This document shows, one piece after another, positions 3,870 through 9,610 of a stretch of 12,500 nucleotides of DNA. Location: the UHGV virus genome UHGV-1789045. One strand, 5' to 3'. This stretch comes from a virus. Position numbers and translations under genes: made by a program. The number at the start of each line of letters is the position of its first letter. The stretch's first letter is position 1. The notes under the pieces are model-generated. The model saw nothing but the letters and a program-made list of their open reading frames with translations. It made no database searches and had not been told where the DNA came from.

Positions 3870-4121
3870 TCAGGCAGCTTTGTTGTAAATGTTGCAGGTA
3901 TCAAGTAAGTAATTAGATGGAGCGCCATAAATTATGAATTCATCGTTTGTCGGGTCCATCTCCATCTCTTGGCCTATTGCCATTCTTGCGTCAGTGTCAT
4001 CAGAGGCGAAGCATAAAACAGCCCACGCACCCATTGTTTTAAACAGAACTGCAATTGGCTGTGGTTTTACTGAATTTGCGTTAGCGCGAAAATCACAAAT
4101 CGCACTTTCATGAAACTCCAT
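3870..4121 (-). CDS. hypothetical protein, 83 aa, immediately downstream of N
   Basis: Minus-strand ORF with RBS GAGGTGAG upstream of ATG 4121; starts 8 nt after the N stop. Product MEFHESAICDFRANANSVKPQPIAVLFKTMGAWAVLCF...NIYNKAA. Occupies the slot lambda uses for ral/sieB. Confidence 0.6.
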   Translation of the reverse strand: MEFHESAICDFRANANSVKPQPIAVLFKTMGAWAVLCFASDDTDARMAIGQEMEMDPTNDEFIIYGAPSNYLLDTCNIYNKAA

Positions 4122-4129
4122 ATCTCACC

Positions 4130-4429
4130 TCAAATAAGTGGTTTGCTGCCTAATTTCATTTTCTGGCGACCAACACAAGTCACACCCATTTCACTGCGTG
4201 GCTTGCGGTAGTAAATACGGTTCTGTTTACGCTCGACTTCTTCTGCCTTCTTGCAGCGAAGGCTTCCGAGTGATGCTGCTTTATCTGCTCTGACGCAACC
4301 AGAGAGCTTTAGCGCAATTTTTCGCGCCAGTCGCTGCTCTTGCATTGCCTGTTCACGTTGAGCCTGTCTGCGTGCTCTGCGGCGATTTCTGGCGTTATCG
4401 TCAGCCAGATATGTAATGACTACTGTCAT
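4130..4429 (-). CDS. N: N-type transcription antitermination protein
   Basis: 99-aa ORF with GGAGG RBS. N-terminal arginine-rich motif DNARNRRRARRQAQREQ, as in lambda N and P22 gp24, the boxB RNA-binding peptide. Located downstream of pL and nutL. Confidence 0.8.
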   Translation of the reverse strand: MTVVITYLADDNARNRRRARRQAQREQAMQEQRLARKIALKLSGCVRADKAASLGSLRCKKAEEVERKQNRIYYRKPRSEMGVTCVGRQKMKLGSKPLI

Positions 4430-4535
4430 GTTGACCTCCGATGATTGACTTTGGCGGTGACGCGCCGGGTGCTTATCTTCCGATTGCCGTCGTGCAGCTG
4501 CACTTCACGTCACCCCAAAGCCAACTACTCTTTGG

Positions 4536-4579
4536 TTCCCGCATTTCGGCGGGACAATCCCATCAATGTTAAAGAGCCT
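4536..4579 (-). promoter_or_regulatory. nutL (boxA + boxB) N-utilisation site
   Basis: On the minus strand, boxA GGCTCTTTAACA (plus coordinates 4568-4579), then boxB hairpin CCCGCCGAAATGCGGG (4538-4553). The boxB 16-mer is identical to the one in nutR at 6235-6250. Confidence 0.75.
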
Positions 4580-4623
4580 GCCAATCTTTTCCGTTTGGCT
4601 TCCAGCTTCCTGCTGATGGCTAA

Positions 4624-4652
4624 AGAATACTGTAGGTATTTTATTGTGTAAA
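4624..4652 (-). promoter_or_regulatory. pL early-left promoter (candidate)
   Basis: Minus-strand -35 TTTACA (4652-4647), 17-bp spacer, -10 TATTCT (4629-4624). Both hexamers overlap operators OL1/OL2. Same -10 hexamer as the candidate pR. Confidence 0.5.
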
Positions 4653-4710
4653 TACCCAAGGTATTTATTTTTGGTGAAATAATGATAAGCAAATGAATAC
4701 AAAGGATATT
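4626..4710. promoter_or_regulatory. OL operator set: three 15-bp AATAC-N5-GTATT repressor-binding sites
   Basis: AATACtgtagGTATT (4626-4640), AATACccaagGTATT (4651-4665), and the degenerate AATACaaaggATATT (4696-4710). Same dyad as the OR sites at 5936-5975. Confidence 0.6.
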
Positions 4711-4796
4711 TATTTTTTCGGTGTCTGCTTGTTCAGTGCTTTTTATGCGGGATATGTGAAGTGGATCCCGATAGCTATTGCTGCCGGGATTATAGG

Positions 4797-5165
4797 TTAG
4801 TCAGCGAAGGTTAAGACGAGAATTACCTTAATGATGTCTGCTACAACAGACACGGCCATAGATAAACCAAAGACGATCCAAGCCACAGTGATGTCTTCAC
4901 TACCATCGTATAGAGTTCCGTAATCACTGGTGTAAGGCGTAAATGTCGCGCCTTGATACAATAGGTATAAGCTTGATCCATAGAGGATAAATGCAGATAT
5001 CCCTTGTATTGCTATGATCACCAGAATCATGAAACGAGCTGATCTATGCGCCCAAGCCTGGCTTATTTTTTCTGATAGAGATTTCGCAATAAAAGCATGC
5101 GCTAAGCCGTAAATTGTCGAGATTGCCAACATCCCAAAAAAGCTTGCTATAGCGGTTCCAACCAT
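4797..5165 (-). CDS. small polytopic membrane protein (3 predicted TM helices), co-transcribed with cI; candidate superinfection-exclusion / abortive-infection protein
   Basis: 122-aa ORF starting 18 nt after the cI stop on the same strand. Three hydrophobic stretches (approx. residues 4-26, 46-70, 95-119). Sits where lambda has rexAB. Confidence 0.7.
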   Translation of the reverse strand: MVGTAIASFFGMLAISTIYGLAHAFIAKSLSEKISQAWAHRSARFMILVIIAIQGISAFILYGSSLYLLYQGATFTPYTSDYGTLYDGSEDITVAWIVFGLSMAVSVVADIIKVILVLTFAD

Positions 5166-5183
5166 AAGCGCCCCCTTGCGTGA

Positions 5184-5900
5184 TCAAACCAGTCTGAGTT
5201 TTGTCTCAATTGCAACGCCTATAATCTTGCAGTTTCCATTGATTGGCACGAGAGGCCATGCAGGATTAAGTCCCTTGAGGTATTTATTTCCGCCGTCGAT
5301 TATCAGCTTCTTGAATGTTGCTTCGTTAGAGTCAGAAAGTTTTGCTATGACCAAGCTGCCGTTGATCGCCTCCCTTCCGGTATCGAAAAGAACGAATGTT
5401 CCCTCTGGAATGCTTAACCCAACCGGTGCCGTCATTGAATCACCTTCCACTTTAAGCCAGAACGCATTACCTTGAATATGCGCGTCAGACTCAAGCCAAA
5501 CATCTATGTCTTTAATGGTGTATGGTTCGCATGCTTCACACCACGAGCCAGCCTGGATACTGCTTAACACCGGATACCTCTTTCCTGCTCTGTATTCCCC
5601 TGCATACCTTACGTTGGCATCGCTCTTAAGGCTTTCTGCCTGTTCTGCAACCTTGGCAGCAATTGACTGGCTAAAATCAGCAATTGAGACTTGCAACAAT
5701 CGTGCAAAACCAGATGCGACCTCAACGTTTAGCGCGTTTCTGCCATTAAGATAATGCCCTACCGCTCCTTGGGTGATACCCAGTTCATCAGCGATTGAGT
5801 ATTGGGTTATTCCCAATTCTTTCTTTTTTGACTCATACAAAGCCTTAAGCCGCTTAGCGTCTTCGAGCTGTTCTGTCGTCAGTGATTTTTTATTTTCCAT
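5184..5900 (-). CDS. cI: CI-type prophage repressor (lambda-cI-like HTH N-domain + LexA/S24 autocleavage C-domain)
   Basis: 238 aa. N-terminus KKSLTTEQLEDAKRLKALYESKKKELGITQYSIADELGITQGAVGHYLNGRNALN closely parallels lambda CI. C-domain FWLKVEGDSMTAPVGLSIPEGTFVLFD...ATFKKLIIDGGNKYLKGLNPAWP...NGNCKIIGVAIETKL matches the P22 C2 / lambda CI S24 peptidase fold, with Ser in GDSM and Lys in FKKL. Confidence 0.95.
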   Translation of the reverse strand: MENKKSLTTEQLEDAKRLKALYESKKKELGITQYSIADELGITQGAVGHYLNGRNALNVEVASGFARLLQVSIADFSQSIAAKVAEQAESLKSDANVRYAGEYRAGKRYPVLSSIQAGSWCEACEPYTIKDIDVWLESDAHIQGNAFWLKVEGDSMTAPVGLSIPEGTFVLFDTGREAINGSLVIAKLSDSNEATFKKLIIDGGNKYLKGLNPAWPLVPINGNCKIIGVAIETKLRLV

Positions 5901-5936
5901 AGCTTAATTCTAATAGCTAAGGTACTTAAACTAAAA
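5901..5936 (-). promoter_or_regulatory. pRM-like maintenance promoter for cI (candidate, near-leaderless)
   Basis: Minus-strand -10 TAGAAT (plus 5912-5907) about 6 nt upstream of the cI ATG at 5900; weak -35. Overlaps OR3 and abuts OR2, the same architecture as lambda pRM. Confidence 0.35.
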
Positions 5937-5975
5937 ATACCCTGAGTATTGATTGCCTTGAATACCTGTAGTATT
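5912..5975. promoter_or_regulatory. OR operator set: OR3 (degenerate), OR2, OR1
   Basis: AATAGctaagGTACT (5912-5926, degenerate), AATACcctgaGTATT (5936-5950), AATACctgtaGTATT (5961-5975). Centres spaced 24-25 bp. Confidence 0.65.
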
Positions 5976-5977
5976 CT
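5949..5977 (+). promoter_or_regulatory. pR early-right promoter (candidate)
   Basis: -35 TTGATT (5949-5954), 17-bp spacer, -10 TATTCT (5972-5977) overlapping OR1. The cro RBS GGAGA lies about 20 nt downstream. Confidence 0.5.
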
Positions 5978-6006
5978 TTGTTCATGGTTAATAACGGAGA
6001 GTGCAT

Positions 6007-6201
6007 ATGATTCGAATGACACTTGCCGATTACGCCAAAATCCATGGACAGGCTAAAGCAGCCAGTGACTTTGGTGTAATCCAGTGCGCTATCAGCAAGG
6101 CCATTCTGGCAGGCCGTAACATTATGGTTACGGTAAAGCCTGATGGCAGTGTGATTGGAGAGGAAGTTCGTCCTTTCCCAAGCAACAAGAAAAACAAATA
6201 G
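6007..6201 (+). CDS. cro: Cro repressor (lambda-Cro-like)
   Basis: The track ORF starts at GTG 6001. ATG 6007 has GGAGA 6 nt upstream and gives [64 protein letters not shown], collinear with lambda Cro ([66 protein letters not shown]). Confidence 0.85.
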
Positions 6202-6207
6202 TAACAC

Positions 6208-6252
6208 CGCTCTTTAACAGTCATGGTCCTCATTCCCGCCGAAATGCGGGAA
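6208..6252 (+). promoter_or_regulatory. nutR (boxA + boxB) N-utilisation site
   Basis: boxA CGCTCTTTAACA (6208-6219), matching the lambda/rrn boxA consensus. boxB hairpin TTCCCGCCGAAATGCGGGAA (6233-6252). Lies between cro and cII as in lambda. Confidence 0.8.
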
Positions 6253-6309
6253 TACAACGCGCATAAGTTGATGCGCATAACTTCTTATTTGTTAAGGAAA
6301 TACTTACAT

Positions 6310-6588
6310 ATGCAACTTACAAGTACTCGCAAGAAAGCGAATGCAATTACAAGCAACATCCTGAATCGAATTGCTGTACGTGGTCAGCGAAAGGTTGCCG
6401 ACGCGTTAGGGATTAATGAATCGCAAATTTCGCGATGGAAAGACAGCTTCATCCCCAAAATGGGAATGCTTCTTGCTGTTCTTGAATGGGGTGTTGAAGA
6501 CGAGGAGTTGGCGGAACTGGCTAAGAAAGTAGCCAGAATGCTGACAAAAGAAAAAGCCCCGAAGAACGGCGAATTCTTCGAGGCCTGA
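6310..6588 (+). CDS. cII: CII transcriptional activator
   Basis: The track ORF begins at 6223. ATG 6310 (RBS AAGGAA) gives [79 protein letters not shown]..., which aligns with lambda CII (…[26 protein letters not shown]…). Confidence 0.85.
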
Positions 6589-6622
6589 TGTAGAAAGACT
6601 GGATCAATCCACAGGAGTCATT

Positions 6623-6769
6623 ATGACAAAACAACTCAGTCCTTACCAGGACAAAATTCACAAACACATACTACGTGATCGCTTCCTGTCCAGCTTCAAG
6701 CAGCCTGGTCGATTCCGGGCTGAGTTGGAAAAAGTGAAGCTGATGCAGAAGGAGAAAGGTCATGAGTAA
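6623..6769 (+). CDS. small hypothetical protein, 48 aa, between cII and O
   Basis: ATG 6623 with RBS AGGAGT 5 nt upstream. Translation [48 protein letters not shown]. Its 3' end overlaps the O start (6762) by 8 nt. Below the ORF-track size cutoff. Confidence 0.4.
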
Positions 6770-7625: not shown

Positions 7626-7733
7626 ATGAAATCAAAAATCAAATCGCTACTGGTCGCTGGTTATAACCACGGCTGGTTAAGTATTTCGTTTGTCGATTTC
7701 TGGTTTAAAAATCTCAATCTGAGGGAATCATGA
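7626..7733 (+). CDS. small hypothetical protein, 35 aa, between O and the helicase gene
   Basis: ATG 7626, 3 nt after the O stop. Translation MKSKIKSLLVAGYNHGWLSISFVDFWFKNLNLRES. Its stop overlaps the helicase ATG. May be a real coupling ORF or just the helicase leader. Confidence 0.3.
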   Translation: MKSKIKSLLVAGYNHGWLSISFVDFWFKNLNLRES

Positions 7734-9610
7734 CGCCAAGTGAACTCAGCGACCTGCTTTGGTCGCAGGTTGACAGGGTGGCTCCGCACCTGTTGCCAAA
7801 CGGCAAGAAAGAGGGGCATGAGTGGGTTGCCGGTAACGTTAACGGTGACAAGGGAAACAGCCTTAAGGTCAACCTTAGCGGCAAGAAAAAATGGGCTGAT
7901 TTCGCTGAGGGAGACGGCGGTGACATGCTTGATTTGTGGATGTCATGTCGTGGAATTAATCTGCATCAGGCTATGCAGGAAGCGAAAGCATTTCTCGGTA
8001 TCAAGGATGACGATCACCATTTCGATGCCAAACGTGAGAAGAAATTCTCCAGACCTGATCGCAAGAAAATCGCCCGCTACGTTACCAGAACAGAATCCCA
8101 TCTTGAGTACCTGCAATCGCGTGGCATATCGCCAGAAATCGTAAAGCGCTACGAGGTTGTCAGCGGCAAGGTGTGGAATGGAGAGCGGGAACTGGATGCT
8201 CTGGTGATTCCGTACAAACGCGATGGTGAGTTGTTGCAGGTCAAGCGAATCAGCACTGAGCGCCCGGACGGGAAGAAAGTCATTATGGCAGAAGGTGATT
8301 GCGAACCTTGTCTGTTCGGATGGCAGGCTCTGGACGCTGGCGTGAGGGCGGTTGTACTTTGCGAAGGCGAAATTGATTGTATGAGCTATGCGCAATACGG
8401 CATCTCGGCGTTATCCGTGCCGTTTGGTGGAGGGAAAGGCGCTAAGCAACAGTGGATTGAGTTTGAGTATCACAACCTCGACAGGTTTGAGGAAATATTC
8501 ATCTCGATGGACGTTGATGATGTTGGTCGTGAAGCCGCAAGGGAAATCGCAAGCCGACTCGGTGAACATCGTTGCCGTCTTGTTACTCTGCCGTACAAAG
8601 ACATCAACGAATGCCTGATGAACGGTGTTACCGAGGATGAAATCTGGCAGTACATCGGCACGGCATCCTACTTCGATCCTGAAGAACTCTACAGTGCGCG
8701 AGAGTTTTACCAGGACACTATCAACGCTTTCTACGGCAAGCAGCAGTATCTGTTTAATCCACCGTGGGAATCTCTGGCAGATAAATTCCAGTTCCGTGAG
8801 GCAGAGTTGACGCTGGTCAATGGTGTGAACGGTCACGGAAAAACGGAGGTTGTCGGGCATATGGCACTTGAGGCAATGCGTCAGGGTGTGAAGACGTGCA
8901 TCGCGTCACTTGAGCTGAAGCCAGGCATTCTCCTTAAGCGACTTACCCGTCAGGCAACGTGCTGCAAGATGCCGCCAGTGCTGGAAATTGACTCTGCATT
9001 TAAATTTTATGACGAAAGACTTTGGGTGTTTGGCCTGACCGGAACGGCGAAAGCCGACAGGCTGATCGAAATATTCGACTACGCTCGCCGCCGATACGGG
9101 ATCCAGTTATTCATCATCGACAGCCTGATGAAATGTGGCATAGGCGACGATGACTATAACGGGCAGAAGGCGTTTGTTGACTCGATTTGCGACTTCAAAA
9201 ACAAAACAAACTCCCACGTCATTCTCGTTACTCACTCGCGAAAAGGAGACAGCGAAGAAAAACCAACCGGGAAAATGGACGTAAAAGGCTCTGGAGCGAT
9301 AACAGACCTGACAGACAACCTTTTCATCATCTGGCGTAACAAGGCTCGCGAGAGAGCGTTACAGAGAGTTCAGAGTGGTGAAAAGATGTCAGAGAAGGAC
9401 GAACAGCTACTGGCATCTCCGGCATCTGTTTTGATGCTTGAAAAACAACGTAACGGCGAAGGTTGGGAAGGTGGTGTCCCGTTGTTCCTTGACGAGCAAT
9501 CGCACCAGTTCCTGCAACTTGAATCAGGATCGCCATATAGCTACATCGCCAATATGCCGAAATCGGAATATGACGAGGCGTGGCGACAGGAAAACGTGAC
9601 GGAGTATTAA
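7730..9610 (+). CDS. bifunctional Toprim primase / RecA-fold (DnaB- or gp4-like) replicative helicase
   Basis: 626 aa. Toprim motifs VVLCEGEIDCMS and ISMDVDDVGREAA. Walker A LVNGVNGHGKTE, Walker B QLFIIDSLMK, and ILVTHSRKG. Takes the place of lambda P downstream of O. Confidence 0.85.
   Translation: MTPSELSDLLWSQVDRVAPHLLPNGKKEGHEWVAGNVNGDKGNSLKVNLSGKKKWADFAEGDGGDMLDLWMSCRGINLHQAMQEAKAFLGIKDDDHHFDAKREKKFSRPDRKKIARYVTRTESHLEYLQSRGISPEIVKRYEVVSGKVWNGERELDALVIPYKRDGELLQVKRISTERPDGKKVIMAEGDCEPCLFGWQALDAGVRAVVLCEGEIDCMSYAQYGISALSVPFGGGKGAKQQWIEFEYHNLDRFEEIFISMDVDDVGREAAREIASRLGEHRCRLVTLPYKDINECLMNGVTEDEIWQYIGTASYFDPEELYSAREFYQDTINAFYGKQQYLFNPPWESLADKFQFREAELTLVNGVNGHGKTEVVGHMALEAMRQGVKTCIASLELKPGILLKRLTRQATCCKMPPVLEIDSAFKFYDERLWVFGLTGTAKADRLIEIFDYARRRYGIQLFIIDSLMKCGIGDDDYNGQKAFVDSICDFKNKTNSHVILVTHSRKGDSEEKPTGKMDVKGSGAITDLTDNLFIIWRNKARERALQRVQSGEKMSEKDEQLLASPASVLMLEKQRNGEGWEGGVPLFLDEQSHQFLQLESGSPYSYIANMPKSEYDEAWRQENVTEY

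Follow-up and report, generated by a model that had tools for sequence, protein, structure and literature searches.

What does a small membrane protein do when its gene lies directly behind a lambdoid repressor gene, at the place that lambda uses for rexA and rexB? The question is raised by the virus genome UHGV-1789045, of which a stretch of 12,500 nucleotides (nt; hereafter the window) was analyzed. A first-pass annotation of this DNA had drawn attention to a 122-residue open reading frame (ORF) that begins 18 nt after the stop codon of the repressor gene cI on the same strand, and had proposed for its product a role in exclusion or abortive infection. Coordinates, gap and strand sense proved right: both genes are on the minus strand, the cI stop codon occupies positions 5186-5184 and the ATG of the ORF positions 5165-5163, which leaves exactly 18 nt between them. 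The ORF is hkaS of coliphage HK620, a real and conserved accessory gene that is almost certainly read together with cI. The function that we tentatively rank first for its product, HkaS, is to block, as a single protein, the entry of phage genomes.

Identity and distribution of hkaS

The window gene corresponds to hkaS of HK620 (AF335538, protein AAK28867). HkaS is 99.2% identical to the HK620 protein, lies within 99-100% identity of the copies of HK620, mEpX2 and HK630, and matches phrog_6534, a family of unknown function, from end to end (E 2.4e-79; residues 1-122 to profile positions 1-122 of 122). The suggestion that the locus might hold an 'undescribed' one-gene system has to be given up in this respect, since the gene has been catalogued as hkaS of HK620 since 2001, with the annotated product 'unknown', and also as PHROG 6534. 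The surrounding immunity region (positions 4430-6000) is 98.8-99.4% identical to those of HK620, mEpX2, HK630, HK140, HZ41, HF4s, phi296 and phi367, and 98.6-98.8% identical, over 93-95% of its length, to those of 611R6 and two Shiga toxin (Stx) 2c-converting phages. In HK620, with a DNA identity of 98.8% across this region, hkaS likewise lies between cI and the operators OL. The HK620-type immunity module as such occurs in P22-like, lambda-like and Stx-converting phages.

The distribution of hkaS is narrow, and it follows that of the repressor. Only 16 phage records contain hkaS, and exactly the same 16 have a cI of 99% identity or more. Among 5426 complete E. coli genomes, hkaS is present in 146 (approximately 2.7%, or about 1 in 37), as is the HK620-type cI; each of the two genes occurs at 147 places, all of them chromosomal, and hkaS is called 'hypothetical protein' in every listed complete-genome record. 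Relatives of hkaS are found on 114 contigs of IMG/VR, a word-indexed search of 5.8 billion proteins returned 12 clusters, all plainly of the hkaS family, and a profile hidden Markov model search of 1.84 billion representatives returned two matches. The divergent relatives were found in Salmonella (61% identity), in a Hafnia-type lineage (83%) and in a metagenome (52%). In GTDB species representatives a pattern scan yielded no confirmed hkaS locus; the family was seen in strain-level collections.

Throughout this range the gene keeps its place. In 84 of the 85 loci for which the upstream region is available, hkaS follows an HK620-type cI at a distance of 17-20 nt, the one further locus having been left unscored by the script. 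The divergent loci (Salmonella, locus L006 and the Hafnia-type lineage) show the same spacing; those of their cI proteins that were compared are 86-88% identical, and a Cro of the same family is encoded opposite. The perfect linkage of hkaS to cI is explained well enough by the position of the gene between OL and OR: separating hkaS from cI would part cI from one of its operator sets, and position alone therefore accounts for the association. A reading of the strict co-occurrence as a functional tie to the repressor was considered and rejected, the location between the operators being sufficient.

Conservation and selection

Copies of hkaS were gathered from phage records, assemblies, IMG/VR contigs and the window itself, 87 in total. 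Each is intact and 369 nt long, and alignments contain no insertions or deletions down to an identity of 52%. When the E. coli gene is compared with that of Salmonella (L002) or of L006, synonymous divergence (pS) is 0.78-0.80, that is, saturated, and nonsynonymous divergence (pN) is 0.27-0.32; in the same comparisons pN for cI is 0.07-0.08. Similarly, 35 distinct E. coli-type alleles give a pN/pS of 0.25 for hkaS versus 0.017 for cI. Taken together, these values place hkaS under purifying selection, with a protein that changes about four times faster than cI.

That hkaS is a real gene, more than a chance reading frame, follows from the intact copies, from the lack of insertions and deletions down to 52% identity and from a pN far below pS. 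The alternative, a nonfunctional frame that is retained merely by being trapped in the immunity module, could draw on the absence of a known domain, on the very narrow distribution and on the occasional frameshift alleles described below. It is nonetheless most improbable, given not only the uniform length and the selection just described, but also a conserved Shine-Dalgarno sequence, invariant charged and polar residues within membrane helices and a confident structural model.

Immunity module and expression with cI

By the HK620 annotation, in which the OL operators and the promoter pL lie on the far side of hkaS and so close the module there, the immunity module encloses hkaS, which has OL on one side and, beyond cI, OR on the other (Table 1). 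The operator core is kept in the Salmonella locus and in L006. The gene for N lies to the left of hkaS, and cro and cII lie to the right of cI, divergent from it. The repressor itself is 99.6-100% identical to cI of HK620 and mEpX2 and matches Pfam Peptidase_S24 (E 5e-24) and HTH_3 (E 8e-10) as well as phrog_4, 'transcriptional repressor' (E 3e-49).

The first-pass annotation expected hkaS to be co-transcribed with cI, and the signals around the two genes agree with this expectation. A consensus scan of the minus strand found neither a sigma-70-like promoter nor a terminator-like site between cI and hkaS, and the only promoter-like site that it found on the cI side of N is pL. A candidate pRM can be read from the sequence, with a -10 element (TAGAAT) six nt before the ATG of cI, making the transcript near-leaderless, and a -35 element (TTTAGT) that abuts OR2, as in lambda; the consensus scan missed this candidate because its -35 element matches at only three of six positions. 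Downstream, the annotators of HK620 (Clark and colleagues) set the end of the cI transcript, tIMM, beyond hkaS. Precedent is provided by the Salmonella prophage BTP1, in which the gene at the same place, bstA, shares the single transcription start of cI (PMC7067206), and the region between cI and N has been described as a common site for accessory ('moron') genes (PMC7067206; PMC2629481). With a signal-free gap of 18 nt, the placement of tIMM, a plausible pRM and the BTP1 precedent, it is almost certain that hkaS is transcribed from the cI promoters.

This transcript may end at either of two sites. At the position of tIMM, a terminator scan and RNA folding revealed no canonical intrinsic terminator. 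Folding of positions 4660-4800 gave a z-score of -2.6 and a hairpin that the terminator scan did not flag; it stands directly after the hkaS stop codon, lacks a U-tract and is the stronger hairpin of the two sites.

For its translation hkaS has a Shine-Dalgarno sequence (AAGGGGG) that ends 5 nt before the ATG, and AAGGA is found at the equivalent place and the same distance in homologues of only 52-61% identity. The spacer is polymorphic in the G run within this element: five G residues are present in the window, giving the 18-nt gap, and HK620 has one fewer, the resulting 17-nt gap being found in 64 of the 85 loci. Such a polymorphism could alter the efficiency of hkaS translation.

A variable slot behind the repressor

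Lambdoid phages with related repressors carry other genes, or none, at this position. The slot of phage 434 (OL657227; cI 52% identical) holds a gene for a protein of 134 residues with a signal-peptide-like N-terminus (locus L007, positions 2109-2513), which is annotated as 'repressor protection protein', a phrase that was not found in the literature searched; the protein has no Pfam or PADLOC match. In Erwinia phage vB_EhrS_49 (cI 65% identical) the slot encodes an unrelated soluble protein of 200 residues with weak tetratricopeptide-repeat matches (locus L009, positions 2230-2832). Serratia phage OS31 (cI 71% identical) has no credible ORF in the slot, and P22 has nothing between c2 and OL. 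The earlier statement that the rexAB position of lambda is filled by unrelated genes elsewhere thus agrees with lambda rexAB, 434, Erwinia phage 49 and BTP1 bstA, and was already established knowledge.

Additionally, two independent frameshift alleles of hkaS exist in nature. In HF4s (MT833387; locus L091, positions 601-968) an A6 run has slipped to A5 at codons 32-33, equivalent to approximately 5069-5074 of the window, and the gene is annotated as a remnant of 77 residues; the A6 homopolymer may be a recurrent slip site. In a number of E. coli assemblies (L095 and L096, positions 1501-1890) a single nucleotide is deleted near codon 25 (approximately 5090 of the window). Gene callers report the latter allele as a protein of 129 residues with a foreign N-terminus, which comes from an overlapping frame (ORF 5044..5187 of the window) that starts inside the cI stop region; protein clusters P0006, P0007 and P0009 are of this kind.

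The variable slot, the frameshift alleles in HF4s and in E. coli prophages, and a guanine-plus-cytosine content of 42% (46.5% for the window) identify hkaS as an accessory gene, or moron, that is not needed for lytic growth. It is an uncharacterised member of the group of accessory genes found in repressor operons.

Predicted architecture of HkaS

The description of HkaS as a small polytopic protein with three transmembrane (TM) segments agrees with two lines of analysis. Kyte-Doolittle hydropathy delimits three hydrophobic segments, at approximately residues 3-27, 45-70 and 93-120. An AlphaFold2 model built from a seven-sequence alignment (mean pLDDT 92, pTM 0.79) contains three long helices (helical stretches 2-29, 31-38, 41-73 and 89-121); the second loop forms a small beta-hairpin. 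Across five deep lineages the first loop (28-44) invariably carries a net charge of +3 to +5, and the second (71-92) one of -1 to -4. By the positive-inside rule, the predicted topology is N-out and C-in, with the first loop cytoplasmic and the second periplasmic.

Conservation is unevenly spread over this predicted fold. It is highest in the cytoplasmic loop (53% invariant), which includes a short amphipathic helix with the motif KISQAWAHRxARF, in and around which K33, I34, Q36, W38, H40, A43, R44 and F45 are invariant. Q54 is invariant in TM2, as is a YLLY..TF..Y motif at the periplasmic end of that helix, and D110 and K113 are invariant inside TM3, followed by ILVLT-A. The window protein ends in ILVLTFAD, with D122 lying one residue past TM3. 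The periplasmic loop, which is acidic and rich in tyrosine, is the least conserved segment (18% invariant).

Comparison with known families

Searches with HkaS bear out the remark that the protein has no recognised motif. Nothing in Pfam, NCBIfam or PADLOC exceeded its threshold, a profile search of PDB sequences matched no solved structure, and no PHROG exclusion family was found at E <1. Sub-threshold matches to Cation_ATPase_C (17.6 bits versus a cut-off of 27.3) and TssN were dismissed as chance. Among the 5027 models of PADLOC-DB 2.0.0 there was no match at E up to 10, a negative that does not argue against an exclusion protein, since this collection has no model for SieA.

The nearest analogy by position is lambda, where the order cI, rexA, rexB, OL means that the Rex genes are expressed with the repressor and where RexB is likewise a small polytopic inner-membrane protein. 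This resemblance had led to the suggestion that HkaS is what remains here of a Rex pair, its RexA-like counterpart being either lost or encoded at another locus. The comparison of the proteins speaks strongly against it. HkaS and RexB give an hhalign probability of 0.7%; Pfam PF15968 and the PADLOC RexB model detect lambda RexB readily (E 8.5e-92 and E 8.6e-61, respectively) and do not match HkaS; and the same hydropathy scan that finds three hydrophobic segments in HkaS finds four in RexB. Furthermore, the lambda system consists of two genes whereas the slot described here holds one: the interval from cI to OL contains no other credible ORF, either in the window or in related loci, and approximately 90 loci from several genera all have the single gene, with neither a RexA-like partner nor a remnant of one. 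The suggestion of an orphaned RexB is accordingly one that we consider very improbable.

A second occupant of the slot is informative in another way. In BTP1 the cI-bstA operon is highly expressed in lysogens (PMC7067206), and BstA was later reported to be a one-gene abortive-infection defense (PMC8585504). Unlike HkaS, which is predicted to be an integral membrane protein, BstA is found at sites where phage DNA is replicated, and the two sequences are unrelated.

Candidate functions

With a partner ORF absent from the slot, HkaS is easier to reconcile with injection blockers that consist of one protein than with abortive systems made of two parts, such as RexAB. P22 SieA, HK97 gp15 and T4 Imm are small membrane proteins that act alone and block the entry of phage DNA (PMC10883804; PMC11436027); SieA and gp15 are made by prophages, whereas Imm comes from a virulent phage. 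Blockage of DNA entry by lone small inner-membrane proteins of prophages is thus described for SieA (PMC10883804) and for examples covered in review (PMC11436027). An exclusion or abortive-infection role for HkaS, as the first-pass annotation proposed, is plausible by analogy with such proteins, and among the specific functions considered the single-protein block of genome entry, or superinfection exclusion, is the one to which we would tentatively give first place. It is favored by a lone small inner-membrane protein, by the continuous production expected in a lysogen and by the variable outward loop: with the periplasmic loop least and the cytoplasmic loop most conserved, the outward face would be suited to meeting phage proteins that vary.

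The following sequence of events can be envisaged. As a one-gene moron cassette locked in the immunity module of HK620-type lambdoid prophages, hkaS would be read from the cI promoters, from pRM in the lysogen and from pRE while lysogeny is being established, and would have a ribosome-binding site of its own for translation. HkaS would then reside in the inner membrane of the lysogen, by itself or in association with a host membrane protein that phages use for entry, and would bar the passage of a superinfecting genome across the inner membrane, as SieA, gp15 and Imm do. The infected lysogen would survive.

Several points weigh against superinfection exclusion. HkaS has no similarity in sequence or fold to SieA (hhalign probability 0.3% for P22 SieA) or to annotated exclusion families, and P22 sieA lies in the immI region under its own promoter, unlike hkaS in its repressor operon. 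We infer, rather than observe, transcription of hkaS in the lysogen, and no study of hkaS function was found in the literature searched. The perfect linkage to cI calls for no functional explanation, as anything between OL and OR would travel along. The pN/pS of 0.25 is without a sign of the positive selection expected of an arms race, and the invariant polar and charged residues of TM2 and TM3 would be equally at home in a channel or in a transporter regulator.

Some of these same observations lend themselves to a different explanation, namely that HkaS regulates a host inner-membrane protein, for example a transporter, FtsH or a stress sensor, and thereby alters host fitness or tunes induction or establishment for this particular cI/Cro pair. 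The highly conserved cytoplasmic loop with its amphipathic helix would fit a partner in the host, itself conserved, better than phage targets, which vary; the moderate purifying selection gives no hint of an arms race, and the association with one cI/Cro type is both strict and old, reaching past synonymous saturation. Moreover, other small prophage proteins, DicB for instance, act on host inner-membrane proteins (PMC6832061). Set against this are the sufficiency of the OL-OR position in explaining the linkage and the deposited HF4s genome with its frameshifted copy. In addition, the related repressors of 434, Erwinia phage 49, Serratia OS31 and P22 are accompanied by unrelated genes or an empty slot, and the switch therefore needs no such partner. 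On balance regulation of a host protein or of the switch is possible, if somewhat doubtful.

A further alternative is an abortive effector: HkaS would oligomerise in the inner membrane and, when triggered by infection, open a pore or an ion leak, so that the cell is depolarised and the infection aborted, in the manner of RexB or a holin though without a separate sensor. Class I holins such as lambda S105 have three TM segments in an N-out/C-in arrangement. Both this topology, as predicted for HkaS, and the size are shared with S105 and with gp13 of P22, and the rexAB operon position and the invariant Q54, D110 and K113 within long membrane helices would suit an effector of this sort. However, homology is lacking both to RexB, whose Pfam and PADLOC models miss HkaS, and to the P22 holin (hhalign probability 0.5%). 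Class I holins have a charged cytoplasmic C-terminal tail, whereas HkaS stops straight after TM3, and they are encoded in the lysis cassette and act late in infection, unlike a gene of the immunity region whose expression is expected in lysogens. A sensor partner is found at none of the loci, and a cytoplasmic part of approximately 17 residues would be very small for a sensor within HkaS itself. An abortive effector is consequently rather unlikely in our estimation.

Bolder still, and quite unlikely, would be the idea that the 122 residues of HkaS make up a complete anti-phage system of their own. The periplasmic hairpin would sense infection, and the response would be either a plug against entry or an ion leak by way of Q54, D110 and K113; the fold would be one without a characterised relative, and hkaS would represent a new family of one-gene defenses hard-wired to a repressor allele. 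The remaining probability belongs to functions other than those listed here.

Implications

Should HkaS turn out to act in exclusion or abortive infection, it would constitute a new and very compact family within prophage-encoded immunity, and would help to explain what the HK620-type immunity module offers its host. If it confers no anti-phage phenotype, HkaS will stay one of many conserved prophage membrane proteins to which no role is assigned. In either event the view of the field is unchanged, as accessory genes that ride in the repressor operon are an already established principle. As an experimental target hkaS is inexpensive, consisting of one small gene for which natural frameshift controls (HF4s) and standard phage panels are at hand.

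Feature coordinates and other observations

The features of the immunity region are listed in Table 1.

Table 1. Features of the HK620-type immunity region in the window, from N to Cro.
Feature	Position	Strand	Basis
N antiterminator, first gene of the pL operon	4130..4429	minus	phrog_271 (E 5e-37); Pfam N_peptide (E 8e-4, below the curated cut-off)
Promoter pL, TTTACA-17-TATTCT	4652..4624	minus	consensus scan and HK620 annotation
Operators OL1-OL3	4625..4688	no strand	HK620 annotation
tIMM equivalent ('termination of cI transcript')	4685..4715	minus	HK620 annotation
Stable hairpin AUCCCGG...CCGGGAU, no U-tract, directly after the hkaS stop	4765..4790	minus	RNA fold
hkaS-family gene, 122 residues, ATG start	4797..5165	minus	ORF listing; phrog_6534 match
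cI-hkaS spacer, 18 nt, with hkaS Shine-Dalgarno AAGGGGG	5166..5183	minus	sequence and alignments
cI repressor, HK620 immunity type, 238 residues, HTH_3 and Peptidase_S24	5184..5900	minus	Pfam and PHROG
Putative pRM: -10 TAGAAT, weak -35 TTTAGT	5907..5935	minus	read from the sequence
Operators OR3-OR2-OR1	5911..5976	no strand	HK620 annotation transferred by 98.8% identical alignment
Cro	6001..6201	divergent from cI, to its right	Pfam Cro (E 4e-26)

Two of the gene starts to the right of cI may require adjustment. The start of cro is probably not the GTG at 6001 but the ATG at 6007. The ORF listed for cII (6223-6588, 121 residues) probably begins too far upstream; the Pfam Phage_CII match starts at residue 30 of this ORF, and cII of HK620 is annotated with 92 residues. 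Directly downstream of N, an ORF of 83 residues (3870-4121, minus strand) matches phrog_2471, a family of unknown function, from end to end (E 3e-61) and represents a further conserved member of the pL operon.

With regard to RNA features, an Rfam scan of positions 4000-6700 gave no match. The small RNA svsR, located at the 3' end of a lambdoid cI (PMC12803456), was also considered; no link to the hkaS locus was found.

Beyond the immunity region the window is a mosaic with respect to HK620, with approximately 43% of its 12.5 kb in common, and no phage record matches more than about 50% of it. Its replication module (7730-9610) encodes an O protein together with a protein of 626 residues that is labeled a DNA primase/helicase or toprim protein in the matching phage records, where HK620 has a DnaB-type P protein instead.

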